Shown one piece after another: positions 15,178 through 54,479 of a stretch of DNA of 64,000 bases. The notes under the pieces were generated by a model, which made no database searches, had not been told where the DNA came from, and was given only the letters and a program-made list of their open reading frames with translations. Made by a program: the position numbers and the translations under genes. Source of the DNA: Heptranchias perlo (lineage: Eukaryota); assembly GCF_035084215.1 (NCBI RefSeq), contig NC_090349.1, forward strand, positions 10,974,001 through 11,038,000. Direction: 5' to 3'. Positions within the stretch are counted from its first letter, which is position 1, and each line of letters begins with the position of its first letter.

Positions 15178-15353
15178 TTACTGGCTGGATGTTGCTTGTG
15201 TGCTGCTGCCACTTCCAGTCGTTTTCCCGGTACTGCTGCCTTTGGGGACTCTGGTGGCGCTAGGCTGCCGCGGCACACGCTGGCTGGATCCTTCGCGGAT
15301 GGCGCTTCGCTCCGCCTGTACGCCACTGATGGCAGTGTTGGATTTATTTCTCA
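15178..15353 (-). CDS. MZT2: MZT2 last coding exon
   Basis: Pyrimidine-rich acceptor ...cttcctttcgcag|TG, phase 1. Encodes (V)RNKSNTAISGVQAERSAIREGSSQRVPRQPSATRVPKG...SSQ* with TAA at 15180-15178, matching the MZT2 motif REGSSQRMPRQPSATRLPKG. Candidate AATAAA signals at ~14893 and ~14837. Confidence 0.95.
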
Positions 15354-18660: not shown

Positions 18661-21600
18661 TCCCAAAATCCTGGGAAAAATACTATCGAAAAAATGTAAT
18701 TTCAGAACTCGTGCCATCATTTTCAAATCTTTCCGTGGTCTCATCTTAGTCATCTCTGTTCCACCACTGATGGCAGAGCAGTCAGCTGTCTCAGCCCAAC
18801 TCTCTGGAGGTCCCCTCTCCCTGTGTATAAAAGTCTCTTTAAAACCAATCTCTTCAATCAAGCCTTTGGTCATCATTCAGCTCCTCAAAAAACTTTGGGT
18901 CTGTTTGTTTCTTCCTCTGAAGTGCCTTGGAATGTTTTTCTGTGTTAAAGGCATTATATTAATGCAAGTTCTTCTTGTCCATTATAAGTGTTTTAAAAGC
19001 TGGGATATCAAGACTTCAGCCCCAGCCCTGGCTATCTAATATCTGAAGCCCAGGCAACTTGGGCTTATACTTCTTATTTGCTGGTTTGACCAGTTTTAAT
19101 TTTGTGGGCCTGAAGGTTTGATGAAACAGCTGTAGTTGGTGCTGCTGCTTCTTGAATTAGATCAAAATCTAATATATTACACACAAACACACATATATAT
19201 CAAACATGGATTTAAACTTTATCTGTGGTCCTCCAAACTACCATTGTGTGCACCTCTGCAATATTGGAAAGCTTGTTCACCCCTATTAATGGGTTTTCTA
19301 TTGCTGGCTAACTCAAAAAGTTAATTCCAATCCAGAATCAGGCGTTTAAATGTCAATCACAACCATCATTTACACTCACCTACCATCAATGTGGTGCATT
19401 TTGCATTCCATCTTTATGGTGTGGTATGGAGTGGCGGAGGTGGGGGGGGGGGGGGGGGGCGGGGGAAAAGAGAAGGGAAGAAACCAGCAGGATCAGTCTC
19501 TTCCCCACAGTGTTGGCCATTTGCAGTGCAGGACTGACCTGACAGCTGTGAAGCGCACACTTCCCATATGCCAGCCCTCTGGGTTGGCAATGGAGTACAT
19601 GCACTACTGAGATGCAGCAATCAAGATAGGGTGACATGCAAGGAGGAAGAGCCCTGCTGGTCAATTTGATTTATATTTTGCAGGAAAATTTGGTATTTGA
19701 CAATGGGTGGGAAGAAAGGAGGAAGGACAAATAAATCAACTAAACATACACCTCAAATGTTTGTGAAATAAAAATCAAAAAAGAAAAATAAATGGTGACC
19801 AGCAGATGGGAACTTGCAGATGCAGTGCCAAGTGTAATAGCACGGGGCTAATCTCTAAGGTACAGGGCCAAATCTAACATTTTGTCAACAGCAGCACGTT
19901 GTGTATCTTCAGTTTACACTCAAACCAAAGGAACGGAATCCATTCTGATGCTAAAAGGGCAGTGGATTTCCAGGTGTGGGAACGCCTAACTACTTTATGG
20001 TAGTGGTTAACTGGAGACAGAATAGCCGAGCAATTAACCAAACAACATCATATGAGAACCCCAGAAGAGAAACTTTCTACATCCAAACACATTACATTTG
20101 AGTATCATGCAATTCTCTCAAGGTCTCAAACAACGTAAAAGGATGGAACAAGAAAGGGATATTCAGCCCTTCGAGCCTGTTCCTTCGGCAGAATGTCTAC
20201 AATCTAACACATCATGGACTCTGCTGACCAAATTACCCGAGGGAAAAGTTCTATATGCAACTATCCCCAAAGCAAATCAAGTACAGACAATTTTTTCTCT
20301 GGATAACCACATTATGAGAGAAAAGATTTATCCAACCATTTGATGCCAGAGTGGTCTATTATTGCAATTTATCATCTCATTTTGAATTAATGGGTTCTGG
20401 ATCATATCACAAAGAATTCAATAACATATTAGAGTTTAAAATTCTAGGTCTTAACGAATTGGATTGCTTCTAATGTATTAGGCTCTGATTAATTAGCAGC
20501 GTATTTCAGACTTGAGTCTCAAGCTGTTCATTGGGCATCTGGGTTAAGCCTGGGTCTTGAAACAAAGGCAAATGTGAAATCGGAGTTCTTCTCATCCTTT
20601 TAGTTCAATCTCAAGACGACCAAAAAGCAGATAGGTGCAGCAATAATATAGCATCCTTCATTTTCACAGGTTTAAATCCTGCAACACAAAGTCAGATACC
20701 TGCAGTTACTCTACAGTTTCAGGTTCTCAGGGAATAGATCTTCCTCTCACCCGAGGATTCCTAGAAAAGTCTGGTCTCTTACTATCAAAAAGGGCTAAAA
20801 TAATGACAAAAAAGACGAGTTCAGGTTAAGCCAAAATGATTAATGTGGGAATAATAATATGGGAACTAAAAACTATGTTGAAAGGCACGTTAACTACTGC
20901 TGGTTCCACGCTTACAATGCAGGATGTTTAGGAGTGACTGATGAGGCCATTACCAGCTGATGCCAGTTACAGAAATTACACATGCATAGTCTTCCCCCAA
21001 TTATTATTTTTTTAAAATTCTTTGGGAAACAAACCTGGAAATTCCCACCGAAATCTGACAATGTGTTCATTAGTAAAGTTTTAGAGGTTAATGACAATGC
21101 ACAAGAAATAAAGCAGACATCTGAACTGTAGGTTTTCTAAGTGGGGACCACAAGGTCAGATTTCTGTCCTTCTGGGACCATGCACAAGGACAGTATCAGG
21201 AGAATTCTGTAGTTGTTGATTTATAAGCATGTAGTGTCATTTCTGTTGCTGAAGACCAATAAAAATATTTTCTACTATAAGCCGACTATTTTTCTTTGGG
21301 CTGAAGTTAGGATAGGGGTCCATGGAAATGTGTCAATATTTGGAGGGGGTCCCGCACAAAGGAAATCACTGTTCTAAACCCAAGGGTGGACAACTACCTC
21401 CAATGACCAAGGAAAATATAGTACAGTAGCTTGGGTTTAAAAAAAATCAGAAGTCAATGGCTTCAAGCATTATCTAAGATAAGTGGTCATGGTTCCTTTG
21501 GACTCATCAGGAGATACCTGTACTATATCTGTAGCCAACAACATGGCCATCATTAGCTGCTGAATGGATAGCCCAAGATGGGCACAATCAACAGGCTTGT

Positions 21601-25315: not shown

Positions 25316-28300
25316 AGACCACCTCTCAGATGGAGAAGCCCAAGTTTTCACACTAGCCTCGTGGATCTTCTCTGTGGTGCCTCCAGTGCTTGAATGTCTC
25401 CTTTGTGCCTTGGTGACTAGAACTGGGCACAATTCTCAAGGTACAGTTTAAGCAGAGCACTATAAAGTTTTATCACAACTTCCTCTGATTCATTCCCCTG
25501 TTTTGGCTATGTACTTCAACATTCTATTGGCTATCAATCAGCTGGACATTTTTAGCATTGAGTCGACAAAGACACCTAGGTCTCTTTCAGCGTCATCCTT
25601 GGCTATTGCAACCACTGCATACAGATGTCTTTACATTTTTCAAGAGGAGCTATTTTTAAAATATCAAATCTTCATGCTACTGGCTAGCTCATACACAGGT
25701 TTACCAATAAACACAGGGTTAACTTCTGGGATTTTGAGACAGAGAGCACAGTTGCACCTGCTCCACAAAGTATTTCAGATTAATAGAACATGTCAAAAAG
25801 CAAGCAACAGTATTAAATTATACACAGACAAGGCTACAACAATGACTGGAAGAGAATTCAAACACGAAAAGCTGTATTTTAGGAGGTACAGGTGCCTCCA
25901 AATACTCACCTTTACCGTTATATATTATGACTCAGTTATAACCACAAACATTAATAGAGAGGTTACTGTAAAGCAACCAGCTGATTTATCAAAAGAGTGA
26001 GCGTTAGCCACCAGCTAAAGAGTTTAGCAAATAAAATGAAGCACTGTGGGATTAAGTTGCTACACTGACACTACTGGGTCGGTCTAGCTTCTATCCCCAC
26101 TACCAGTGGTTAGCGAGTTACACTGCATTTTATTACGGAACAGACACTCTTGATTCAATTATAAAGCCCTTGTTGCATCTCAATGAGGTAACTGGCACCA
26201 ACTTATTCTAGTGTCAAGTATACTGAAACAATCATTAAGAAATCAAAAGCTCTCAATATGAAAATAAAGCCTTGATCACTTCAATCTCTGTAGTCAAGAA
26301 GCTAATTCCCTGATTGAGTGCAGTCGACCTCAATGCATCCTACAGAATTGGGAAGAGTTATTGGATTAGTTCCATACAACCTGACAGATTCAGTGAACTA
26401 GGAGTTAAGGTTTTCATAAAATTACTTTTAAAAAGCACAAGGTCTTAATGCATAACGAGAAAATCTGATGTGGAGACAGCGTCCATTGCTGCTGCGTAAC
26501 AAAATGCACTCCTATTTTAACAGCGGGGTGCACAGACAGCAAGGTTCTATGATGCTGGGCTACCTTTTGTTATTGTGGGATATTACCACACTGTATAATT
26601 AGTATGCTGGGGACAGGTGGAAGAGGAGACAGGGGAAAAAGAAACTGGATAACATACACATCTTGGTACCTCAGCATCACAGTGTGCACTGTATCAGGAT
26701 CGCAAATCTTTCTGGAATTTACTATCCAAAATAATCCAATACTGCATCAAAATATTTTTATATCCTTTATATCTTTATATCCTAGGTCATCAAAGTCCTA
26801 ACCTGCAAAGCCCTACCTGAAACTAGCCAGTGCTATCCCTATTATAACTGTTAAAAACACAAGTTACTCCATTTTGACTTTCACTATCCATTTTATATTA
26901 TAAACACTAAATCCCTTTTAGGGTATTTATAGCTGTAAATACTCAAATAATTCACATAACAAAACCACCAAGCCCCTCAACTGAATTACCTTTGTGTAGT
27001 TTATTGAAACACTGGTAGTATCTATTATATTGGCAATCTCAGGTTTAGTGGACTTACAGATATGGAGAAGAAGCATCTCCCAGTTTCTAAAAGAAACATA
27101 AAACAAACTTCACCCAAACATGGATAATCCTAATTTACAGAATGTTTAGGAGTTTTATTTTTGGGTCCATTATTGGTAATATTTTCCTATTGTTTCCAAA
27201 ATACGATTTCTACCTGCAGTTATCAAAAATATTCTTTAAAAAACTTCCTAATATCAGATTATCCACACTCCAAAACATGGCTGACTGGGTAAATACAGTA
27301 CTTAGTATGGTACTGAGCAATACAGACCAGGGGGACCGTAGGTAGCTGATCTCAGGCCAGCAGTTGGGACACAACAGTTGGCCTCAGCATTGAGCTAGCA
27401 TCAAAAAAAAAAGCAGGACTTCTGTATCGACTGCTATCCAGTGACTCCTGCTGGACCCTAGAAGCACGTGGAATAGCAGGAAAGGACAGAATTGCACTCA
27501 GCTGAACGTACCAAAGTCAAACAATGCACCAAAATTAATTGCCCAGGCTCACCCATAAATAAGCACTTGGGAGAGGTTCCTGATGGCTGCTGAGGCCCAT
27601 GGTGGCTCAGTGCCTTCAGAAGAGGGCTGATGACAGAATATCGAAGGCAAATTGGAGAATTTTTAAAATATATATAATTATATATATACACACACACAAA
27701 ATAATTCAAGAAGTATTCAAAACATAAGTAGATGGAATAAAGTGATAGATGTCAATTTAAAAGTGTTATTATGTAGATGACTTGAACATTTACTAAGAAT
27801 GGCATCCATCAATCACTCAAGAGTACTATCAAAAAGGAAGTAACCTAGGCAAAGGAAACTTCTTATCCTGTTGCTTTAGCTAATCTAATTCTAGATACTA
27901 GCCCAAGGGTACAAGGAGTCAGCTCCACTCTGTAAAAGCCTTCAGTTTGTAATCTAGTTCCTAGTGCAATCACTGACTGTACAGGAACCCAGCAGATAAA
28001 CTAATAAACGCAACCTGAGAAGGGTGAGAACAGGCAGCAAGAAAACTGGAAGGAACCAGGGGGACCTTGAGAGAGAGGTGAGCAAGCATCAGCAGGGTTG
28101 TAGACCACAATCTTAGTGGCTAGTCTCGGAGATCGGGCAGAGGAAAAGGAGAGTGCTGGGATTTTACTGTTCTTTGCGGAGACAAACGAATGCTCTAGTT
28201 CAGAGAGGAAAGAGATGAAAACACATTAAGGAACACAGGATGTAGAGAGGTACAGAAATTTAGTCCAGTGCAAAGATACAAATTCAACTAATCTATCAGA

Positions 28301-30271
28301 AACTGTGTGGTTCTAACGAATCTTTGGGCTCTATAGCCACATATATTTTTAAAGAGTGAGTATCATCATCAAAATTGCTTTAAGAAAAAATTATGAGGAA
28401 CTTTAATATATCCTCTTATTTTGATTTGGTATTTTTGATTTTTTTTTGGAAGATTTTTAGTGAGATACATCATAGTCAGGTGAACTGACTGGGAGCAGTT
28501 ACTGAGACAAATTATGTAAAGGACTAGGATTAACAGCCAGTACAGTAATTAACCAATGGCATTTCAGCTTCAGCTTGTGTGTTAACAGTCAAGCTCAGTA
28601 ACTAGCAAGTATCCACAAGGAGGTTTGGTTTTCTTAAAGGGGATCCCAATGGAAAGACTTCCTCTTTAAATTACAAATGCAACAGCATAGTTTACACAAG
28701 GCGGGAATTTTAATTTTTTTTTGCACAGTAGCAAATTCCTCCTCATGGGTGGAATCATTTTGTAATATGGTCTCTGGGAGCACATTATAAAAAGGTACTT
28801 AACATGGGCCTGTGTCAGGAAGACTTAAAACAATCCACATTATGTTATAGATTATATTACATCACAAGGCTACTGTGCGATAAAATCTTTAGTACAAAAG
28901 TTATATGGATTACAGCACCTTTACCCACACTAAAACATTCATACGTAAATTGGCTTCTTAAAAATATATTGCAATAAAATCTGCTCCCCTGTAAAACAGA
29001 TCTGCAGTTATATTTTAATGTAGAATTACTGCATAACCATCCATTTAGACATTACTATTGCCCAACAGAGATTTGAGTCTTACCTCAAGCTGTTGAGAGA
29101 AAGCGAGAGAACGGGAGGGGGGCAGGGAAGAGGAAAATGAGGAAGGACAAGAGACAAATACACAGAGCAAGAAGCTACATTTCCCTCCCAACTTGCACAA
29201 AATACAGAAAGACTGGACACCAAGAGCTGGACTTCAGCAGCTTGTTAGCAAGTGCTCAGATAGTGAGAAAGCTCACAGTAACTTTGCCTGGCATATTTCT
29301 AAAGGCTGGTCGACCCCCATTTAGAACAGGCAGAGCCCCCATGTAGTATGGCTCCAGTCACAACATCTCATTTCACAAATTGGTTCAGTCAACGGTCAAT
29401 TGAGTTTTCACTGATGACTCACCATTATCCAATCCTCTTTCTAAAATAAATTAGTAGTTGCACTGTGATTTAATGCTTTTTAAAAAAAGTCAATTTGATT
29501 TGGGCTAATCACCCCCAAACTGTCAATCAAACATTCAGAACAATTTTTTAAAATATTAAAAAGGTGCTTTGCTCTTTACGATGTAAAACAAACCAATGCA
29601 CACTTCAACGCCATAAGATGATCGAAGTCCTTCACACCAGCTGCACAGTGATGAAGATAAAAGATGAAAAGCTACTTGTGTGACATTCTGCTGCCAGTGA
29701 ATTGATCAGGGAATTAAGGTTCACACCGACAATATAGCCTCTGAGCTATTTTCCTTAATCTATTATCGTAAAAGAATTTTGATACAAAAATTGTGTTTTT
29801 TACAAAAATTGGCTTAAGTGCTGCACAAGGAGTGCTATCTTAGATGTGCTGGTTTGGCCAAAGGCTATATCACAAGGGTGAAAGAACCCAATATATTTCT
29901 GCAGTTGCGGGTACACTGGGGTATAATTCAATGGGCACTAGCAGCCTTCTGGAACCTAACTCGAGTGGCTACTCGTTCGAGTCTAAATGGCGAGTGTTAG
30001 TGGGCTATCTGTCTCTTAGCACCATCATTTGAGCCCAATTCTGTCTTTACTTTGCCTTTACATGCATGTCCTTTCCAGTAGGGGTCAATTAGAAGCCTTT
30101 TTTGACCATAGCCAAGGACACAGAGATTTTAAAAATATGGTCTCCTACTGGAAACTAGTAATTAATATGGTATAAAGCAAACATCCAGCTATGGCAGAGG
30201 AAACCTGCCCAAACATTACAACTCAATAGCAAGAGTGACCTTGAAGGAGACATTTTAATATTTAATATAAA

Positions 30272-30422
30272 CATTAGATCAATACTTGGAGGGAAAAAAT
30301 TTGCAGGGCTACGTGGGAAGAGCAAGGGAACGGGACTAATTGGACAGCTCTTTCAAAGAGTCGGCACAGGCACAATGGGCTGAATGGCCTCCTCTTGCGC
30401 TGATCCAACTATGATACTATGA
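30272..30422 (+). mobile_element. Short CR1 3' tail (copy 1 of a direct pair)
   Basis: attagatcaatacttg...ggcacaggcacaatgggc...ctatgatactatga. Confidence 0.8.
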
Positions 30423-31350
30423 AATGAAAGGCACCACTCACAGAATGACTTCTTTTCCTCACAAAACTTGCCACAGGGATAAGATTTCAAATCACACCTT
30501 CTCTTTTCAACGATTTCCCATACAAAAAAAGGCAGCACACAGAAAAGTACTTTTTTACCCTACCTCCATTGCTTCATTCCACATTGCTTTCTAGTATTGT
30601 GGCTTTCAATCGCATTGTGAACAGTGGTGTTACTCAGATAAAGGGCACCAGAGTCATAGAATGAAACTTCTTCCACACAAAGGCTGCTGATTCTGCTCCG
30701 TTACTCAGAGAATTACTTCCAATGCTACTTCTGACATTAACAGTTTGCCAGAAAAATAGACACCAGAGCCAAGCAATTCAGTCATCAGCACATAAAAGTT
30801 GCCAGAGTTCCTAACTTTGTAGGCGGGGCCTTTCAGGTGGCAGTGCTCAGATTAATGCTTTAGGCCAAGGGCACAAGACCTGGAGAGTGGCTTGTTTCCC
30901 CTCACAAAGTTAGGTAGATACAGGTGATTTTCTGGGAAGCCAAGCTCCAAATAGCACTTGTCACATAAAGTAATTTAATTGTGAGAAAAGGAAAGGCACG
31001 AGAATGAGAGACTGAAAAGTGCTGCTTGGAATGAATGTTGGATTGTGGTTTGTTTTTGAATGGCTCGTGTTTGAATGCAGCTGTGCTGCTTGTGTTTTGT
31101 CAAGTTGAGCAAGCAGAAATGTAGGCGAGGTCAATGTTAAGCGATAGGTTGTAAAATGTGAGTTGTTTTGAGAAATGTGTGTGTGAATGTTGGTTTCACT
31201 GCAGGGATGGTGAACTTCATGACTGGCACTGCCTGATAAGTCATGCAAGAAAATGGAATGGTGTGTGTTTTGTGTTTGCACAAGAAGGATCAGTGCGAGG
31301 CAGCTCAGTAAGGGTACAGATTTTGGAGGACACTTTTACAGCATTGCATT

Positions 31351-31469
31351 GTCAGGGTGGCTGAGTGGTCTGATGCACCAGACTCAAGGACTGCTTATCC
31401 TTACCTTACTAAAGGTTGGTGAATTTTGGTCCCTTTCTAGGGGCATGGGTTCGAATCCCACTTCTGATA
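31351..31469 (+). pseudogene. Intron-containing tRNA-Leu(CAA) gene, degenerate and probably a pseudogene
   Basis: GTCAGGGTGGCTGAGTGGTCTGATGCACCAGACTCAAG-[~35-nt intron]-...GGCATGGGTTCGAATCCCACTTCTGATA matches the vertebrate tRNA-Leu-CAA layout. It carries CpG-type substitutions, an intact B box, and a T5 Pol III terminator at 31475-31479. Confidence 0.85.
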
Positions 31470-31587
31470 TTAGCTTTTTATCCACACAAATGCCGTCAGC
31501 GTCAAACAGCCTGCTCAACTCTGCTTCAATTTACACGTGGCCGCTTCAAGTACCTCAGCGGTATTGCCGTTTGCCGACAAAAGTGAA

Positions 31588-31735
31588 TTAGATCAATACT
31601 TGAAGGGAAAAAAATTATAGGGCTATGTGGAAAGAGCAAGGGAATGTGACTAATTGGACAGCTCTTTCAAAGAGCCGGCACAGGCACGATGGGCCATAGT
31701 AGGTACAGCTCTTGTGCTGTACCTACTATGATACT
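31588..31735 (+). mobile_element. Short CR1 3' tail (copy 2 of a direct pair)
   Basis: Starts with the same attagatcaatacttg as 30272 and is colinear with it. Confidence 0.8.
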
Positions 31736-31829
31736 GTAATATTTTAAAGAAACAGTACACTTTTGGCAGGACTAGCCAAGGTTAAAAATGTAATACTGCA
31801 ATGCAATCATTTTTCTGCAAAAAACAAAT

Positions 31830-32130
31830 TGTCCTGGCTAAAATAGCAATTCACAAGTCCAGGATGAGCGCGATCCGTAGGGAGGGTCACTCTGGCTGGC
31901 TGCCTCTTTGCCACCGTCTCGTCCGCACCCTGGCGGTCCGGGAGAGGTACCATGTCCACGGGCATCTACGAGTACACTTGGCGCCTTCCACGGCTGGTAG
32001 ACACCACAGGACGCTGGTTGCATAATTGACAGATATAACGAGATACAGATTTAGTTTAAGTTTCTATTAATTTGATTAGACCAGGTTAGATTATTTTTAC
32101 TGGTGCCCTCTTTAAAAAAACTTGTAGCAC
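31830..32130 (+). mobile_element. Degenerate Tx1-clade LINE 3' end
   Basis: Translation LAKIAIHKSR....G.SGWLPL..RLVR...RERYHV aligns with the better-preserved Tx1 C-terminus at 42811-43012. It is followed by an AT-rich 3' UTR with ggtgccctctttaaaaaaaa. Confidence 0.65.
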
Positions 32131-33589
32131 TGATTCTTTGACCAGTGACACTGCGGAACTCGGTGTTACCTTTACCAATCTAATTAAAAAAAACAAAAAC
32201 AAATTCCCATCTATTTTTAGGATGGGTTGGGGGGTGGTGGAGACTCTCTCTCGAAGTGCTAGATATCTACACGGATGAGAAGAAGAACTTACCATGTAGT
32301 GAATTACAGGTGTGAACTTGCTTAATTGTCATTCTATGGAACAGTGTCTTGGTGGACGAGCACACTGGATAATCCCAACTGCACAACTTTTTTATTAAAA
32401 AGAGGGGCAATTTTGCAATTCCATTATTTTCAACTCAGGACAGTACAGCAGGATGTTTTCCTCCTCCCTGCTACAGCTTGATCCCATCTTCAACAACAAA
32501 GTTGTATAGACAGATTGGCTCTCAGGGATAGTACGAGATCCTGAGTCAGTCCTATTCAAGCATGCCATGAATGGAGAGTCTAACACTGAAAAAAATGCCC
32601 TCAGGAAATAGGCAAAATAATACATTTATAAATAGCTTTATTCTGCATTTAAAACACGAGACAGATCCTAACACTGGTTTAAAACCCATCACATTGCCAC
32701 ACAGCAGTGACAATGTAACAAACAGACAGCAACTCTCCCAAGTGTGACTGTAAAGGTGTTCCCATCATTTGTGCTACCATTCACCAAGTGTTAATTTGCA
32801 GTTACATATAGCAACCCATAATCAAATCTACACTACACTATAATTACATTGTTAAATGCTATTTTAACCCAATTGATACTAAGACTGAAATAAGAATTGT
32901 TCTTAATGCAGGATGCAGCTCATTAGCTGGAATTTAACAGGCACTTTTACGAAGTGTTTCTGCATTCTGGTAGGTCAAGTGCTTTGCTTTTAATGCATCA
33001 AATTCTTTAAAATCTAGTTCTTGGTGGAAGTTTCTTTGGCCACAATCTGATCAAAACAAATTGGAGGGAGAAAGGAGGCGAATGAACTCCCTCCCAAACC
33101 ATTCCCTTCAAACTCACAGGACAATTTACCATTTTCTTCCATCTGTAGGGTTTCCATTTTATGTCAATGACTCAAACATTTACAGTCCTAAATATTTCAA
33201 ACCAAGTGCTATGAAACTAACAGTTGTAGCAAACCAATCATTGGTGTTTTGAGACTGACTGAGACCTTCTAGAGATCCAACTATAATATTGCAAAACCCT
33301 TTGCATCACAGTAGGAGACCATACGTGGTGGAGGATTCTACCTTTTTTGCAGGGGGGGGGGGGGGGAAGGGGGAGTGGGAGAATCTGTGCACTCACTTTT
33401 AAGTGACTGACAGAAAAATGAAGCCCCTCACTCACATAGGCAGTGGTAGCTTAACCCTTCAAAATCTAAATTGCTTAATTTCTGGCAATCATTATCTACC
33501 AATTTGTGTCCCCCTAAGGACATTATATTTCATGGCTATACAAAAAAAAAGTTGTGACTTAAGATCTATAGAAATGCAAGTTTTCTTAA

Positions 33590-33945
33590 CACATCTCTCC
33601 AAAACATCCCAAAGGGCTTCACATACAATGTATCACTGAGGTGCACTCACTATTGCCATTTTACACACAGCAAGATGCCACAATGAGTGAATGAGTGGTT
33701 CATATTTTTGTGGTGGCATTGAATGAGGGAGGAACTCTGTGCTCTTCGAGTAGTGCCATAGGATCTTTACCCACCTCAACTACTGGAATAGGCAGACAGA
33801 GCCTTGATTTAATGTCTCATCTGAAGATTTGTACCTCAGGCAATGCAGCACTCCCTCAGTACTGCAATAAAGCATCAGTCTAGATATGTCCCTGAATCAC
33901 AACCTTCTGACTCAAAAAGTCAGTGTAACCAATTGAGCCAAGCAG
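33590..33945 (-). mobile_element. tRNA-derived SINE, degenerate
   Basis: Reverse-complement similarity to the SINE at 2857-3300 (aaccttctgactc, aattgagcca head). Confidence 0.65.
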
Positions 33946-33974
33946 ACATCTGTGAAGCTCCAAAAAGGAACTTA

Positions 33975-34740
33975 ACCCCGATGGTTCAGTTGGCAAAGTT
34001 GTGAATGAGCCAGAATTTCCTCCAAATTAATATCGACACTGCCAAAAACTCCATACCCTTACCACTCCCTCCTCAACTTTTCACTCAGGCTGCACCAGAC
34101 AGTCCACAGCCTCAGGATCCTGTTTGCCCTGGAGCCAAGTTTCAAACCCCAGATCCTGGTCACCAAAAAGGTCACTTGTTTCCACTTCCATTGATATGGC
34201 CCACCTCTGACCCAACCTCTATTGAAGCTCTAGTCCATGCTCATCGGCCTCAGACACCCTCCCAAGCTACACCCTCCATAAACTCCAACTAGCCCAAAAT
34301 TCTACCACCAGATCCTATCACACACTAATGTCTGCTTGCCCATCAGTCCAATCCTCACTAAACTATGTTGGCTCCCTCTCTCCCAACATATCAATTTCAC
34401 CTCTGCATACTTGTGAACTCTCCACCCTTATATCCCATTCCAAGCTCTTCCTTCTTCTCAATCTGGCTCCCTGAAAATGGCTCCCTGAAAATTGCCCCCT
34501 CCTTTTCCACCCTTTGTGGCAGAGCTTTCAGCTGCCTCAGCCCTACTCAGTCTTTTCCTAAACCCCTCCCCATCCTTTCTTCCCATCTTCCAATGCCATC
34601 TCAAAATCTGTCTATCGAACCCTATATTTGGTTACCTCTGCTAACTCCCTCACTCAAGCTGGATGTCTATTTTTACTCCTATGAAGCACCTTGGGATGTT
34701 TTCTATACTCAGGCTGCTACATTAATGCAAGTTTGATATT
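33975..34740 (+). mobile_element. Old L2 LINE 3' fragment
   Basis: C-rich L2-type sequence (..SIEALVHA.., ggcagagctttcagctgcctcagccc) ending in the L2-type tail attaatgcaagtt. Confidence 0.6.
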
Positions 34741-36044
34741 GCAGCTGAGTCATAGTCACCAGACGATCCCAGGTTCCTGCCCAGTCTGTGTGGAGTTAAC
34801 TGATCAAGAAAAGGCAGCAGTAAGAGCGCTACAATTAGCCCCAACACCTTTAGGCTACGCTGGGAAAAGAGAAAAAGAAAAAGCCATCATTCCCACTCCT
34901 GATCGCCATTAATTCGCCCCGCTGGAAAGAGTCTGCAATTTTATAGACATCAGTCAATGACACGGTCAGGCTTGGCTGCCAACATTTACTCGTTAGGTTT
35001 GCGTACATGAGCAAGGTATCACAGGGTGCCTGGTACCCATGAACATTACTCCAGCAGGAATCAACATCTTGCAGGATGGAAAAACAAAGACAACCTTTCC
35101 CCCAATCATAATATTTTACTTTAATTTTTCTTCCGAGATCAATGGCACAAAACAGCAAGTATAGCTGGTGTAAGCAATAGAAATGTCACACACATGTAGC
35201 TGCGGGCAGGGGGGCATCTCTTCTGAGGGTGAAGTTAAGGCATCTTGTTCAGAATCAAGAGGTTTATTCAATACATCTAACTTGTGCTGTATGTCAACAC
35301 TGAGTACTCACTGTTCCATTCTTCAGCATTAAGATCCCTTGCAAAAAAGTTAATTTAAAAATAATTTAAATCCCTTGCATTTATTTTACTTTAAATTCTT
35401 TTGTATGTCACACACCATTCCCTGGTTGAGCAGAAGGCAGGTGATGTGCTCGCAGGCTTCTGCTAATGGTTTCATTTTGACCAGTGGAACCTGCAGCTGA
35501 TCGGTTTTGTGGCAACGCAAACTCCAACTTTGCCTCCTTCCCTTCAGGGAGGATTGTTCCACTGACACCGTGAGACATGCTACATACTGTACTTTTCACC
35601 CCAGAATAAAATCCGACAACCATTCCCTAGCAATGGGGATGAAATTCTTGACTATACGAGCCCAGTCTAGTTACATGAAGAAAAGAAACTGAACTTACCA
35701 CACTATTTAAGATTTGAACTTTGAGTGAACTGCATCAAAGCTATTAGAAGCCTTCTACAGGTGCCGCGTGGACTAGTCACACTACCAGTTTTAAATTCAA
35801 CATTTCAACTGTGAAAATAGCCTCAAACTGTTGGGCCACGAGCTGCACTTTGCATTGTAGGAGGGAAGTAGCTAATGTTTAAGGGACCCAATATTCAAAA
35901 ATACCCACACAGCACCTCTGTGGAGCACACAATCTGTGGTAGAATAACGGGATTTGAGAGATTAGAAGCTCATAATACGCTTTGTCGTTGCGATACAAAT
36001 GACTCTGGGGCATTGCTCCCGCTAGTCAGCTGATGGTGTCTCAC

Positions 36045-36193
36045 CTCTAGAGTCCGCCAGGCTGCTCTGTGTCATTGTGGACGGTGTCTCAGCTGAGGAC
36101 ATCTCTGCAATCCGGTGTCCTGCACACATGGCTTTCAGCATCTGGAAAACTGCCAATGGAGCCACGTTCATCTTCAACAGATCCACGATTATC
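36045..36193 (-). CDS. MZT2: MZT2 coding exon 2 (MOZART2 domain)
   Basis: Acceptor tttctcgtttatcag|G (phase 2) and donor AGAG|gtgaga (phase 1). Encodes IIVDLLKMNVAPLAVFQMLKAMCAGHR..., near-identical to the MZT2 motif ILVDLLKLNVAPLAVFQMLKSMCAGQR. Confidence 0.97.
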
Positions 36194-36377
36194 CTGATAA
36201 ACGAGAAACAGGAACAGCACGTTAGAGGAACCAGATCCTTCCAGCACTTAACAGATGATGGGCACAGAAACAATGATTCCCTGTTTAAATAATGTCACAT
36301 CTGAAGGAGTATCACAAAGATGAATACTGTAACTTAGGATGAGAGACTGGAAAAATCTTGGGAAAACATACATACAT

Positions 36378-41254: not shown

Positions 41255-41436
41255 TTGAACACTTCCTGGTCCACGACAATACTAGCGGCCTGTGTGAGCT
41301 CATACAGCTCCAGCTCTTCTGCATTGAGGATCTTCTTCTTCTTGACTGCATATTTCTGTACATTTCCACTGACTGTGGCCAGGAGAGTCTGCTGGGCATC
41401 AAGGCCAGAAATCCCAGCCTGCTGTGGTACAGCCAT
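41255..41436 (-). CDS. MZT2: MZT2 first coding exon
   Basis: MAVPQQ...QKYAVKKKKILNAEELELYELTQAASIVVDQEVF(K) matches the MZT2 motif RRKKVLSTEEMELYELAQAAG..IDPDVFK. Donor AA|gtaagt (phase 2); upstream acceptor gatttcag near 41464. The three exons join in frame: 182+149+176 = 507 nt, 168 aa. Confidence 0.96.
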
Positions 41437-46719: not shown

Positions 46720-47780
46720 GAAACAGGCGGCACTACCATGCTCTTTCTAAAGGGGGCGCTGACCGCACTCACCATTCACAAAAAGGAGCTGCACAGATTC
46801 GCGCGCGGCGGGCGGGGTTTCAGCGCCTGTAACCGGGACAAAGTGACGTAAACACCTTTAAAGGGACATCTGACGAAAGGTCTTCGACCTGAAACATTAG
46901 CCCTGTTTTTTCCCCTCCACAGATTGCAGCCTGACTTGCTGAGCTTTTCCAGCACCCGCAGTATTTTGCATTTGATTTAAAGAGACATTGACTTGTATGT
47001 GATTTTTTTCTCTCTAAGGAATAAAGTCCTGTACCAGCCAAAGTCAGCGTGCGGCATGGGATCCGAAGAATAACTGCTCTTTACCGTTCCTCCTGGAAAC
47101 GGTCCCCTCTTCCTCTGAACAACAGCCCTTCCTACCTCTTTGCATTGTTTGTGTAATAATTGTTGTACAACCTAAATTCTCATAATCGCACCGCGCTTTA
47201 AGACTCGCGGTACTGACATCCTAAAAGATATATAAACATTTATTATATACGGGGGATTATTGGCTGGTAGAAGCTGCGACTGACAATCGGTAACAGAGCG
47301 ATAAATAATAGATAAATGTTATATTCTGCTCGTCAGCTTGTGAGGCTGAGGCATGAGGCTAGTAACTAAGAGATTTGGGTTTGAGCTGCAGGACCTGCTC
47401 CCTCCCCCCCCACAGCGCGCGGCCTATCGGCGCCCGGGCCTCTCCCTGATCCCCGCCCTCTCTCTCCAGGACCCGCCTTCTCCATGGGGAAGCCGGCTGC
47501 TTTTCTGCCCTCCTCCTGCGGGGTGTTGGTTGTGGATCGTTCAGTGTCGTGTGAAGGCGTGCAATTCTCCGCTCCGGGCCCGGGCTCCGACCCCAGCAAC
47601 GGGATGAGCGAACCGCCCAGTGCGGCCTGCAGCTCAGCGGGCCCCGCGCTACCGCTGCTTTCGTCGCCGGACAACACCGACACTCACAAAGGCTGGCTCT
47701 ACAAATGGACCAACTACCTGAAGGGTTACCAACGCCGCTGGTTCGTGCTGAGTAACGGACTCCTCTCTTATTACAGGTAG
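46720..47780 (+). promoter_or_regulatory. OSBP2 promoter region and CpG island
   Basis: GC-rich patch 46725-46860 with a CTCF-like CTAAAGGGGGCGC (~46748), GCGCGCGGCGGGCGGGG and a CRE-like TGACGTAA (~46844). The CpG island proper spans 47390-47780. Confidence 0.55.
47484..47776 (+). CDS. OSBP2: Oxysterol-binding protein 2 (OSBP2/ORP4), first coding exon (start of PH domain)
   Basis: [30 protein letters not shown] is the OSBP/OSBP2 PH-domain start; NYLK rather than NYIK favours OSBP2. Phase-2 donor AG|gtaggt. The start codon is either 47484 or the in-frame 47604 (MSEPP). Exon 2 was not found in the window. Confidence 0.88.
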
Positions 47781-47789
47781 GTCACTGGC

Positions 47790-50700
47790 AACCGGAGCCA
47801 GCCGCCGTGCCCCCCCGCCTGGCACCCGGAGCCAGCCGCCGTGCCCCCCCGCCTGGCACCCGGAGCCAGCCGCCGTGCCCCCCCGCCTGGCACCCGGAGC
47901 CAGCCGCCGTGCCCCCCCGCCTGGCACCCGGAGCCAGCCGCCGTGCCCCCCCGCCTGGCACCCGGAGCCAGCCGCCGTGCCCCCCCGCCTGGCACCCGGA
48001 GCCAGCCGCCGTGCCCCCCCGCCTGGCACCCGGAGCCAGCCGCCGTGCCCCCCCGCCTGGCACCCGGAGCCAGCCGCCGTGCCCCCCCGCCTGGCACCCG
48101 GAGCCAGCCGCCGTGCCCCCCCGCCTGGCACCCGGAGCCAGCCGCCGTGCCCCCCGCCTGGCACCCGGAGCCAGCCGCCGTGCCCCCCCGCCTGGCACCC
48201 GGAGCCAGCCGCCGTGCCCCCCCGCCTGGCACCCGGAGCCAGCCGCCGTGCCCCCCCCGCCTGGCACCCGGAGCCAGCCGCCGTGCCCCCCCGCCTGGCA
48301 CCCGGAGCCAGCCGCCGTGCCCCCCCGCCTGGCACCCGGAGCCAGCCGCCGTGCCCCCCCGCCTGGCACCCGGAGCCAGCCGCCGTGCCCCCCCCGCCTG
48401 GCACCCGGAGCCAGCCGCCGTGCCCCCCCGCCTGGCACCCGGAGCCAGCCGCCGTGCCCCCCCGCCTGGCACCCGGAGCCAGCCGCCGTGCCCCCCCGCC
48501 TGGCACCCGGAGCCAGCCGCCGTGCCCCCCCGCCTGGCACCCGGAGCCAGCCGCCGTGCCCCCCCCGCCTGGCACCCGGAGCAAGCCGCCGTGCCCCCCC
48601 GCCTGGCACCCGGAGCAAGCCGCCGTGCCCCCCCGCCTGGCACCCGGAGCCCGCTGCCGTGCCCCCCGCCTGGCACCCGGGGCCGGCACCCGGAGCCCGC
48701 TGCCGTGCCCCCCCGCCTGGCACCCGGAGCCAGCCGCCGTGCCCCCCCGCCTGGCACCCGGAGCCAGCCGCCGTGCCCCCCCCCCGCCTGGCACCCGGAG
48801 CCAGCCGCCGTGCCCCCCCCCCGCCTGGCACCCGGAGCCAGCCGCCGTGCCCCCCCGCCTGGCACCCGGAGCCAGCCGCCGTGCCCCCCGCCTGGCACCC
48901 GGAGCCAGCCGCCGTGCCCCCCCGCCTGGCACCCGGAGCCAGCCGCCGTGCCCCCCCCGCCTGGCACCCGGAGCCAGCCGCCGTGCCCCCCCGCCTGGCA
49001 CCCGGAGCCAGCCGCCGTGCCCCCCCCGCCTGGCACCCGGAGCCAGCCGCCGTGCCCCCCCGCCTGGCACCCGGAGCCAGCCGCCGTGCCCCCCCGCCTG
49101 GCACCCGGAGCCAGCCGCCGTGCCCCCCCGCCTGGCACCCGGAGCCAGCCGCCGTGCCCCCCCCGCCTGGCACCCGGAGCCAGCCGCCGTGCCCCCCGCC
49201 TGGCACCCGGAGCCAGCCGCCGTGCCCCCCCGCCTGGCACCCGGAGCAAGCCGCCGTGCCCCCCCGCCTGGCACCCGGAGCAAGCCGCCGTGCCCCCCCG
49301 CCTGGCACCCGGAGCCCGCTGCCGTGCCCCCCGCCTGGCACCCGGGGCCGGCACCCGGAGCCCGCTGCCGTGCCCCCCGCCTGGCACCCGGAGACGGCCG
49401 CCGTGCCCCCCCCGCCTGGCACCCGGAGCCGGCAGCCGTGCCCCCCCCGCCTGGCACCCGGAGCCGGCAGCCGTGCCCCCCCGCCTGGCACCCGGAGCCG
49501 GCAGCCGTGCCCCCCCGCCTGGCACCCGGAGCCGGCAGCCGTGCCCCCCCGCCTGGCACCCGGAGCCGGCAGCCGTGCCCCCCCGCCTGGCACCCGGAGC
49601 CGGCAGCCGTGCCCCCCCGCCTGGCACCCGGAGCCGGCAGCCGTGCCCCCCCGCCTGGCACCCGGAGCCGGCAGCCGTGCCCCCCCGCCTGGCACCCGGA
49701 GCCGGCAGCCGTGCCCCCCGCCTGGCACCCGGAGCCCGCCGCGGTGCCCCCCGCCCGGCACCCGGAGCCGGCCGCGGTGCCCCCCCGCCCGGCACCCGGA
49801 GCCGGCCGCGGTGCCCCCCCCGCCCGGCACCCGGTGCCGGCCGCGGTGCCCCCCCCGCCCGGCACCCGGAGCCGGCCGCGGTGCCCCCCCCGCCCGGCAC
49901 CCGGAGCCGGCCGCGGTGCCCCCCCCGCCCGGCACCCGGAGCCGGCCGCGGTGCCCCCCCGCCCGGCACCCGGAGCCGGCCGCGGTGCCCCCCCGCCCGG
50001 CACCCGGAGCCGGCCGCGGTGCCCCCCCGCCCGGCACCCGGAGCCGGCCGCGGTGCCCCCCCGCCCCGGCACCCGGAGCCGGCCGCGGTGCCCCCCCGCC
50101 CGGCACCCGGAGCCGGCCGCGGTGCCCCCCCCGCCCGGCACCCGGAGCCGGCCGCGGTGCCCCCCCCGCCCGGCACCCGGAGCCGGCCGCGGTGCCCCCC
50201 CCGCCCGGCACCCGGAGCCGGCCGCGGTGCCCCCCCCGCCCGGCACCCGGAGCCGGCCGCGGTGCCCCCCCGCCCGTCACCCGGAGCCGGCCGCGGTGCC
50301 CCCCCCGCCCGGCACCCGGAGCCGGCCGCGGTGCCCCCCCCCGCCCGGCACCCGGAGCCGGCCGCGGTGCCCCCCCCCGCCCGGCACCCGGAGCCGGCCC
50401 GCGGTGCCCCCCCCCGCCCGGCACCCGGAGCCGGCCGCGGTGCCCCCCCCGCCCGGCACCCGGAGCCGGCCGCGGTGCCCCCCCCCGCCCGGCACCCGGA
50501 GCCGGCCGCGGTGCCCCCCCCCGCCCGGCACCCGGAGCCGGCCGCGGTGCCCCCCCCCCGCCCGGCACCCGGAGCCGGCCGCGGTGCCCCCCCCCGCCCG
50601 GCACCCGGAGCCGGCCGCGGTGCCCCCCCCCGCCCGGCACCCGGAGCCGGCCGCGGTGCCCCCCCCCGCCCGGCACCCGGAGCCGGCCGCGGTGCCCCCC

Positions 50701-53700
50701 CCCGCCCGGCACCCGGAGCCGGCCGCGGTGCCCCCCCCCGCCCGGCACCCGGAGCCGGCCGCGGTGCCCCCCCCCGCCCGGCACCCGGAGCCGGCCGCGG
50801 TGCCCCCCCCCCGCCCGGCACCCGGAGCCGGCCGCGGTGCCCCCCCCCGCCCGGCACCCGGAGCCGGCCGCGGTGCCCCCCCCCGCCCGGCACCCGGAGC
50901 CGGCCGCGGTGCCCCCCCCCGCCCGGCACCCGGAGCCGGCCGCGGTGCCCCCCCCGCCCGGCACCCGGAGCCGGCCGCGGTGCCCCCCCCGCCCGGCACC
51001 CGGAGCCGGCCGCGGTGCCCCCCCGCCCGGCACCCGGAGCCGGCCGCCCTGGCACCCGGAGCCAGCCGCCGTGCCCCCCGCCTGGCACCCGGAGCCAGCC
51101 GCCGTGCCCCCCCGCCTGGCACCCGGAGCCAGCCGCCGTGCCCCCCCGCCTGGCACCCGGAGCCAGCCGCCGTGCCCCCCCGCCTGGCACCCGGAGCCAG
51201 CCGCCGTGCCCCCCCGCCTGGCACCCGGAGCCAGCCGCCGTGCCCCCCGCCTGGCACCCGGAGCCAGCCGCCGTGCCCCCCGCCTGGCACCCGGAGCCAG
51301 CCGCCGTGCCCCCCGCCTGGCACCCGGAGCCAGCCGCCGTGCCCCCCCGCCTGGCACCCGGAGCCAGCCGCCGTGCCCCCCGCCTGGCACCCGGAGCCAG
51401 CCGCCGTGCCCCCCCCTGGCACCCGGAGCCAGCCGCCGTGCCCCCCCCTGGCACCCGGAGCCAGCCGCCGTGCCCCCCCGCCTGGCACCCGGAGCCCGCC
51501 GCCGTGCCCCCCGCCTGGCACCCGGGGCCGGCACCCGGAGCCCGCTGCCGTGCCCCCCGCCTGGCACCAGGAGACAGCCGCCGTGCCCCCCCGCCTGGCC
51601 CCCCGAGCCGGCAGCCGTGCCCCCCCGCCTGGCACCCGGAGCCGGCAGCCGTGCCCCCCCCGCCTGGCACCCGGAGCCGGCAGCCGTGCCCCCCCGCCTG
51701 GCACCCGGAGCCGGCAGCCGTGCCCCCCCCGCCTGGCACCCGGAGCCGGCAGCCGTGCCCCCCCCGCCTGGCACCCGGAGCCGGCAGCCGTGCCCCCCCC
51801 GCCTGGCACCCGGAGCCGGCAGCCGTGCCCCCCCGCCTGGCACCCGGAGCCGGCAGCCGTGCCCCCCCGCCTGGCACCCGGAGCCGGCAGCCGTGCCCCC
51901 CCGCCTGGCACCCGGAGCCGGCAGCCGTGCCCCCCCCGCCTGGCACCCGGAGCCGGCAGCCGTGCCCCCCCGCCTGGCACCCGGAGCCGGCAGCCGTGCC
52001 CCCCCCGCCTGGCACCCGGAGCCGGCAGCCGTGCCCCCCCCGCCTGGCACCCGGAGCCGGCAGCCGTGCCCCCCCCGCCTGGCACCCGGTGCCGGCAGCC
52101 GTGCCCCCCGCCTGGCACCCGGAGCCCGCCGCGGTGCCCCCCCCGCCCGGCACCCGGAGCCGGCCGCGGTGCCCCCCCCGCCCGGCACCCGGAGCCGGCC
52201 GCGGTGCCCCCCCCGCCCGGCACCCGGAGCCGGCCGCGGTGCCCCCCCCGACCGGCACCCGGAGCCGGCCGCGGTGCCCCCCCCGCCCGGCACCCGGAGC
52301 CGGCCGCGGTGCCCCCCCCGCCCGGCACCCGGAGCCGGCCGCGGTGCCCCCCCCGCCCGGCACCCGGAGCCGGCCGCGGTGCCCCCCCCGCCCGGCACCC
52401 GGAGCCGGCCGCGGTGCCCCCCCGCCCGGCACCCGGAGCCGGCCGCGGTGCCCCCCCGCCCGGCACCCGGAGCCGGCCGCGGTGCCCCCCCGCCCGGCAC
52501 CCGGAGCCGGCCGCGGTGCCCCCCCGCCCGGCACCCGGAGCCGGCCGCGGTGCCCCCCCCGCCCGGCACCCGGAGCCGGCCGCGGTGCCCCCCCCGCCCG
52601 GCACCCGGAGCCGGCCGCGGTGCCCCCCCGCCCGGCACCCGGAGCCGGCCGCGGTGCCCCCCCGCCCGGCACCCGGAGCCGGCCGCGGTGCCCCCCCGCC
52701 CGGCACCCGGAGCCGGCCGCGGTGCCCCCCCGCCCGGCACCCGGAGCCGGCCGCGGTGCCCCCCCCGCCCGGCACCCGGAGCCGGCCGCGGTGCCCCCCC
52801 CGCCCGGCACCCGGAGCCGGCCGCGGTGCCCCCCCGCCCGGCACCCGGAGCCGGCCGCGGTGCCCCCCCGCCCGGCACCCGGAGCCGGCCGCGGTGCCCC
52901 CCCCGCCCGGCACCCGGAGCCGGCCGCGGTGCCCCCCCCGCCCGGCACCCGGAGCCGGCCGCGGTGCCCCCCCCGCCCGGCACCCGGAGCCGGCCGCGGT
53001 GCCCCCCCCGCCCGGCACCCGGAGCCGGCCGCGGTGCCCCCCCCGCCCGGCACCCGGAGCCGGCCGCGGTGCCCCCCCCGCCCGTCACCCGGAGCCGGCC
53101 GCGGTGCCCCCCCGCCCGGCACCCGGAGCCGGCCGCGGTGCCCCCCCGCCCGGCACCCGGAGCCGGCCGCGGTGCCCCCCCCGCCCGGCACCCGGAGCCG
53201 GCCGCGGTGCCCCCCCCGCCCGGCACCCGGAGCCGGCCGCGGTGCCCCCCCCGCCCGGCACCCGGAGCCGGCCGCGGTGCCCCCCCCGCCCGGCACCCGG
53301 AGCCGGCCGCGGTGCCCCCCCCGCCCGGCACCCGGAGCCGGCCGCGGTGCCCCCCCCGCCCGGCACCCGGAGCCGGCCGCGGTGCCCCCCCGCCCGGCAC
53401 CCGGAGCCGGCCGCGGTGCCCCCCCCGCCCGGCACCCGGAGCCGGCCGCGGTGCCCCCCCCGCCCGGCACCCGGAGCCGGCCGCGGTGCCCCCCCGCCCG
53501 GCACCCGGAGCCGGCCGCGGTGCCCCCCCGCCCGGCACCCGGAGCCGGCCGCGGTGCCCCCCCGCCCGGCACCCGGAGCCGGCCGCGGTGCCCCCCCCGC
53601 CCGGCACCCGGAGCCGGCCGCGGTGCCCCCCCCGCCCGGCACCCGGAGCCGGCCGCGGTGCCCCCCCCGCCCGGCACCCGGAGCCGGCCGCGGTGCCCCC

Positions 53701-54345
53701 CCGCCCGGCACCCGGAGCCGGCCGCGGTGCCCCACCCCCCCCCGGCCCGGCACCCGGAGCCGGCCGCGGTGCCCCCCCCCCTGCCCGGCACCCGGAGCCG
53801 GCCGCGGTGCCCCCCCCCCTGCCCGGCACCCGGAGCCGGCCGCGGTGCCCCCCCCCCTGCCCGGCACCCGGAGCCGGCCGCGGTGCCCCCCCGCCCGGCA
53901 CCCGGAGCCGGCCGCGGTGCCCCCCCCCCTGCCCGGCACCCGGAGCCGGCCGCGGTGCCCCCCCCCCCGCCCGGCACCCGGAGCCGGCCGCGGTGCCCCG
54001 CCCGGCACCCGGAGCCGGCCGCGGTGCCCCCCCCCCCCGCCCGGCACCCGGAGCCGGCCGCGGTGCCCCCCCCCCCCCCCCGCCCGGCACCCGGAGCCGG
54101 CCGCGGTGCCCCCCCCCCCCCCCCGCCCGGCACCCGGAGCCGGCCGCGGTGCCCCGCCCGGCACCCGGAGCCGGCCGCGGTGCCCCCCCCCCCCGCCCGG
54201 CACCCGGAGCCGGCCGCGGTGCCCCCCCCCCCCGCCCGGCACCCGGAGCCGGCCGCGGTGCCCCCCCCCCCCGCCCGGCACCCGGAGCCGGCCGCGGTGC
54301 CCCCCCCCCCGCCCGGCACCCGGAGCCGGCCGCGGTGCTCCCCCC
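47790..54345. repeat. ~34-bp GC-rich minisatellite, ~190 copies (GGCACCCGGAGCCAGCCGCCGTGCCCCCCCGCCT and variants)
   Basis: Directly visible tandem array with a variable poly-C tract and three variant classes arranged in blocks. Confidence 0.99.
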
Positions 54346-54479
54346 CTACTGAGACCCTGCTGTTATTATCAGCTGAAGATTGTAACTTTACTATTAGCAG
54401 TGAGGATTTGGTGTGAAACCTGGGATGGATTAGAAATTAGTTCAAGGGTTGAAGAAGCAGGTACTTGGTAGAGTCTTCT

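Follow-up and report, generated by a model that had tools for sequence, protein, structure and literature searches.

Strong splice signals around a six-base candidate exon, and a conserved cassette exon, in one intron of MZT2 in Heptranchias perlo

Introduction

The second coding intron of the MZT2 gene in Heptranchias perlo holds the six bases CTTGAG, set between a strong acceptor and a strong donor, and the question raised by this locus is whether these bases are spliced into the message, where they would read Ala-stop and cut the protein short, or are passed over. All positions refer to the window, the whole stretch of 64,000 nucleotides that was analysed. A preliminary description, made from the letters alone, had taken the six bases as a microexon that would yield a stable tail-less MZT2, with an intermediate splice point as the alternative. 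A literature search, covering titles and abstract starts outside subscription journals and supplements, found no study of MZT2 splicing, of a cassette exon or of a 6-nt exon in this gene.

The MZT2 host gene

The first coding exon of the minus-strand gene in the window (41255-41436, 182 nt) matches two H. perlo MZT2 proteins at 100%. The host protein carries the MOZART2 domain (PF12926) at residues 16-99 with an E-value of about 1e-44, and it matches the solved human MZT2B chain 9qvm_p with an E-value of 5.4e-34. The second coding exon (36045-36193, minus strand, 149 nt) ends in phase 1, the last coding exon, exon 3, runs to the stop codon (15178-15353, minus strand), and the second coding intron measures 20,691 nt. 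Joining exon 2 to exon 3 without the six bases gives a protein of 168 aa, the same length as the annotated protein P0001. The gene is single-copy in its own genome, where a genome search matched just its four known exons, and the paralogue that was sought there for a conservation comparison was likewise not found beyond these four. In sharks, rays and chimaera the annotated isoforms are about 170, 214 and 231 aa long, the longer ones owing their extra residues to the cassette described below, and the simple three-exon picture of the preliminary description has to be widened, since a conserved cassette and a stop-bearing exon also sit in the same intron.

Splice signals and reading of the six bases

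On the MZT2 sense (minus) strand the arrangement cag|CTTGAG|gtaaga stands exactly where it had been placed, with the candidate exon at 29089-29084, the acceptor CAG ending at 29090 and the donor GTAAGA starting at 29083 (29078-29083). The pyrimidine tract, which had been put at about 65 nt, is also borne out: pyrimidines make up 57 of the 65 nt that precede the CAG, AG is absent for 83 nt, and the acceptor, CU-rich tract and AG-free zone together occupy 29090-29174. Of the intron's 654 YAG sites this one is the strongest acceptor. On a human-type matrix, the donor is the fifth strongest GT in the intron and scores 6.3 bits, compared with 5.5 and 5.8 bits for the two constitutive donors. The tract has the highest density of the 4-mers TCTT, TCTC, CTCT and TTCT in the intron, and a branch-point-like CTCAT lies at 29141, inside the zone upstream of the six bases; the labels “PTB-type” for the CU 4-mers and “branch point” for CTCAT rest on consensus sequences. 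The signal at 29089-29084 is confirmed, as a signal rather than as use in splicing.

With 6 nt between AG and GT the candidate falls within the 3-27 nt that define a microexon by length. It departs from neural (SRRM3/4-type) microexons in their open frame, the six bases putting in an in-frame TGA, and in their UGC following a set-back tract. The tract reaches to 5 nt from the six bases, UGC is absent between tract and AG, and the closest upstream TGC, at 29124, lies inside the tract, 35 nt away; the layout upstream is thus not the typical SRRM3/4 one. Neither TGCATG nor GCATG was found when sought in 29400-27700.

In phase 1, inclusion of the six bases translates as Arg-Ala-stop, as had been claimed, and gives 111 aa against 168, a form that does keep the MOZART2 domain, given where that domain lies. 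By the established rule, a message enters nonsense-mediated decay (NMD) when its stop precedes the last junction by more than 50-55 nt. The stop in the six bases would lie 1 nt before the last junction if they were joined to exon 3, and 130 or 181 nt before it if the cassette followed, so the proposed escape from NMD would hold for the direct junction to exon 3 and would fail with the cassette, for which NMD is predicted. The proposed tail-less isoform needs correction as well: inclusion would give 111 aa without the tail, but the tail is not only low-complexity, as residues 171-220 of the annotated protein P0121 align to human MZT2B with an E-value of 5.7e-8. According to the accessible text of one structural study, structures place only the N-terminal helices of MZT2, with GCP2 and a CDK5RAP2 peptide (PMC7416306), and since these helices are resolved with GCP2, the 111-aa form is expected to keep that module. 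Were the six bases included, they would be among the shortest stop-bearing exons and would show the tail of MZT2 to be under regulation in the gamma-tubulin ring complex.

Strength of the site against chance

Locally the site stands above chance. In the surrounding 464 kb, surveyed on both strands (928 kb), the six-base site alone among 30,748 YAG sites combined a tract of at least 48 pyrimidines in 65 nt with a donor that scores at least 4 bits and lies within 3-27 nt, and a tract as long as its own was found at 4 of the 30,748. Equally strong sites are expected by chance at roughly 0.0015 per 64-kb window, or about 75 per genome, figures scaled from local counts that rest on just 3 other long-tract sites. 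With about 75 such sites per genome, strength by itself is no proof of selection when many windows are scanned.

Searched genome-wide, the pattern of an acceptor and an AG|GTRAG 3-27 nt apart gave 323 matches against 522 in a reversed control that may be inflated by repeats, and the motif class is not enriched but stands at chance level. Lengths divisible by three occurred in 14 of 40 matches (the first 40 of 100 listed), which is the chance rate. Within the motif class the six-base site is at the top, as judged against these 40 matches: one of them had a tract as long, one an AG-free zone as long, and none had both. Moreover, its tract stops at the acceptor, whereas many other long tracts continue past the YAG. 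A strict all-pyrimidine pattern, which the six-base site does not fit, gave one match and one control match; a pattern with one free position, fitted after the site had been seen, gave three matches including the six-base site and one control match. The site is single-copy in the genome by a search that skips simple repeats, and it lies outside tandem repeats.

As an observation in its own right, the strongest of the 40 sampled motif matches is a 15-nt microexon-like site at G000:C1:108773566-108773604 (plus strand), with 60 pyrimidines in the 65 nt upstream and an AG-free zone of 75 nt.

The cassette and other exons of the same intron

The tblastn search with annotated isoforms places a conserved alternative cassette exon at 28015-28194 (minus strand), beginning 890 nt downstream of the six bases. 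It is 180 nt long, or 129 nt via an inner donor after 28066, has phase 1-1, and both of its donors are weak, scoring about -3 bits on the human-type matrix. In the window it corresponds to an exon of the annotated proteins P0121 and P0002, and a search with the cassette peptide returned 66 matches, all 66 being MZT2 forms or unnamed. Homologues occur in Callorhinchus, coelacanth, lungfish, sturgeon, amphibians, turtles, lizards and crocodilians, and as far as the marsupial Vombatus, and teleosts have a diverged version. The end of the cassette, GPPGSFQFSCCLFSPF, is nearly invariant from chimaera to marsupial; from its sequence, the di-cysteine in the hydrophobic patch could be a palmitoylation site or membrane anchor, or conservation of this end could instead come from RNA signals.

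The last 51 nt of the cassette (28010-28065, minus strand) form a pyrimidine tract ending in CAG|GT, which ranks third among the acceptors of the intron, and this tract matches the distal exonic recursive motif as given in the accessible text of PMC10156609. Read-through past the cassette gives Gly-Cys-Val-Tyr-stop, as in gene models of Scyliorhinus torazame, Amia and Atractosteus, which implies that the start of the intron after the cassette is conserved too. The window cassette is one codon shorter than most other chondrichthyan cassettes, missing the Leu of SSALRSP (28135-28150, minus strand). The idea that the six bases supply the Leu-Arg seemingly absent here (SSA-RSP against SSALRSP) was rejected, as the cassette is one continuous exon and the difference is 3 nt in the genome; a two-residue insert from the six bases in the 170-aa isoforms of other sharks was rejected as well, both extra residues falling inside exon 3.

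Further along the intron, a stop-bearing exon of the annotated 192-aa isoform P0002 lies at 20700-20794 (minus strand), 95 nt long if the donor CAG|GTATCT is used. Other lineages have small exons of their own in this MZT2 intron, coding for 7 aa in Stegostoma, 8 aa in Latimeria and 28 aa in Chiloscyllium, for which no convincing match was found in the intron of the window. The Mustelus tail, searched in the same intron, matched a repeat-like stretch at 22165.

Evidence on inclusion

No chondrichthyan MZT2 protein, out of 62 among the matches listed (23 named species and 3 unnamed entries), ends after exon 2; beyond the exon-2 end these 62 go on to the cassette (33), to exon 3 (25) or to another exon (4). 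A wider set gave the same answer, with none of the 227 proteins that carry the anchor motif, of 239 fetched among the matches listed, ending in Arg-Ala after exon 2. The protein sets behind these isoform counts were the best 120 of 375, 66 of 66 and the best 120 of 419 matches. Annotated cassette isoforms, RefSeq isoforms X1/X2, are present in gene models, and the 6-nt exon is in none of the models examined. Annotation pipelines and contigs both lose minor exons of 6 nt, so that such negatives weigh little on inclusion.

Contigs from 4 of 8 sequencing runs (runs X1, X2, X3 and X5) were placed on 27900-36300, the RNA status of all 8 being a guess; runs X1 to X3 are one sample and run X5 is another organism. 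Exon 3 lies more than 20 kb from exon 2 and outside this stretch. Of the optional exons in this intron, the one observed in spliced form is the conserved 180-nt cassette. In run X3 one contig of 210 nt (depth 158.7) consists of 30 nt of exon 2 and the whole 180-nt cassette, with GT..AG ends; its two parts leave no space for inserted bases, and it is unbroken where the cassette begins. Judged from depths, about half of the flow out of exon 2 passes through it (159/333). Run X3 is the only one of the four in which the cassette is covered. The exon-2 contig of run X5 continues for 28 letters beyond the exon end with no branch.

The exon-2 contig of runs X1 and X2 ends exactly at 36045, cassette and intron are both uncovered, and bin depths fit branch contigs without intron read-through; the contig end and the depths together imply that a second path leaves exon 2 there. 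This path may lead to the six bases, to the exon at 20794-20700, which is a candidate for it, or to an exon outside the stretch, and majority inclusion of the six bases in these two runs is unlikely, given normal gene models. Heuristics of the SPAdes kind would remove a minor 6-nt bubble, so that just majority inclusion would show. Such contigs are simplified by these heuristics, according to the accessible text of PMC12424806. Since 28743-29585 has no contig cover in any of the four runs, that region gives no evidence on inclusion, and the proteins and RNA-like contigs neither demonstrate nor exclude inclusion of the six bases. The cassette, which jawed vertebrates conserve and which is run-specific, is the firmer lead of the two, one already in gene models.

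Comparison with known exons

A close counterpart would be the 20-nt neural poison microexon of Bak1, which, in the accessible text of PMC10551640, is likewise tiny and stop-bearing, and the MZT2 tract would be compatible with PTBP1 repression. The Bak1 exon is shown to be included, its conservation extends across mammals, and NMD acts on the message that carries it (PMC10551640, accessible text), whereas the MZT2 exon has 6 nt, is a candidate only, and would escape NMD if joined straight to the last exon. With the SRRM3/4-dependent neural microexons, as far as the accessible text of 10.1101/2024.09.17.613571 describes them, the candidate has in common a length of 3-27 nt in a multiple of three, a strong donor, a long AG-free zone and an upstream UCUC...UGC pair. 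In those exons, however, the tract is set back from the AG, UGC usually lies near the AG and the frame is mostly open (10.1101/2024.09.17.613571), while in MZT2 the tract reaches the acceptor, UGC is 35 nt off inside it and a stop is encoded. The UGC motif occurs in 74-79% of SRRM3/4-type exons and is not strictly required, by the same accessible text. As a candidate, the six-base exon would work like a poison or tail-truncating microexon that lacks two typical neural features.

Vertebrate recursive sites of the form Y5+N0-4YAG|GT (PMC10156609, accessible text) likewise have, inside an intron, a pyrimidine tract and an AG that a donor closely follows; in MZT2 acceptor and donor are 6 nt apart, and the AG juxtaposed to GT is GAG rather than YAG. 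The annotated MZT2 cassette isoforms of sharks, rays, chimaera, coelacanth, lungfish, amphibians and reptiles are a further comparison, belonging to the same gene and the same intron.

A proposed, mostly skipped cryptic exon and its rivals

To the reading that the six bases are a cryptic exon, skipped in most transcripts, we give about an even chance. CU 4-mers are the kind of motif that PTB proteins bind. Six bases would be too short for exon definition across their length without helpers, and PTB-type repressors probably bind the CU-rich tract, which would leave exon 2 normally spliced to the cassette or exon 3; inclusion in rare cases, followed by exon 3, would give the tail-less 111-aa protein, and followed by the cassette a message predicted for NMD. 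The mostly skipped exon is argued for by the 62 proteins of which none ends after exon 2, the insert-free contig of run X3, the unbranched contig of run X5, the chance level of the motif class and the roughly 75 such sites expected per genome. An in-frame stop is, moreover, atypical of conserved microexons in the accessible text of PMC10551640, which we count on the same side. Against it stand a site this extreme, with a tract ending at the acceptor, on the sense strand and with a regulated exon 890 nt away, the small exons that other lineages have gained in this intron, and the branch in runs X1 and X2, which could be the six bases.

It is possible, if on balance not likely, that the six bases are instead a stop-microexon under regulation, probably a neural one freed from PTB-type repression, whose joining to exon 3 would make a stable 111-aa MZT2 with the GCP2-binding helices and whose joining to the cassette would lead to NMD. 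The strongest acceptor of the intron's 654 YAG sites, a donor above the constitutive ones, the top CU-motif density and a single-copy site that is no tandem repeat all speak for regulation, as do the neighbouring regulated exon and the branch that runs X1 and X2 show behind exon 2, although the exon at 20794 could account for that branch equally well. A precedent exists in the Bak1 stop microexon of 20 nt, repressed by PTBP1 (PMC10551640, accessible text), and UGC is not strictly needed for the SRRM4 response (10.1101/2024.09.17.613571, accessible text); yet no short isoform is annotated in the 62 chondrichthyan proteins among the matches listed, the exon 2-cassette contig of run X3 has no insert, UGC is missing between tract and AG, and TGCATG and GCATG are absent in 29400-27700. 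We consider it unlikely that the six bases and the cassette form a two-way switch, in which the six bases alone would give a stable 111-aa MZT2 with the GCP2-binding core and no conserved tail, and the six bases with the cassette would give NMD. Were this switch true, a tail-less, a short-tail and a cysteine-bearing long-tail subunit of the gamma-tubulin ring would alternate by tissue, and microtubule nucleation would have an undescribed splicing layer.

Strong sites can also serve without being spliced, as in the decoy-exon concept. Here U2AF, PTB and U1 would occupy tract and donor with no productive splicing, and inclusion of the weak-donor cassette would be tuned in this way, a role as decoy or silencer that would account for strong sites of which no product is seen in contigs or proteins, and that the closeness to a cassette with donors of about -3 bits makes conceivable; a typical splicing element would lie closer than 890 nt, however, and we hold this role to be distinctly improbable. 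Still less can be said for a recursive point of zero length, at which splicing of exon 2 to GAG|GTAAGA would restore a donor for a further round that leaves no trace, and which we judge highly improbable. An AG is indeed directly followed by GTAAGA, and introns with lariat-supported recursive sites have a median length of 3.4 kb (PMC10156609, accessible text), but the motif Y5+N0-4YAGGT of the same source is not present, the juxtaposed AG being GAG, the tract is followed first by the CAG that lies 6 nt upstream, and the best donor for a downstream RS-exon within about 590 nt scores 0.45 bits. The intermediate splice point offered earlier as an alternative fails on the YAG|GT rule in either frame of cutting (CAG|CT, GAG|GT), and the sole YAG|GTRAG in the intron is at 19382.

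Other features of the window

Elsewhere in the window, about 6.6 kb of repeat-like sequence at 47780-54400 has a GC content of 86-91% and long stop-free frames on both strands. This GC-rich stretch directly follows an exon whose peptide resembles a PH domain of the OSBP family.
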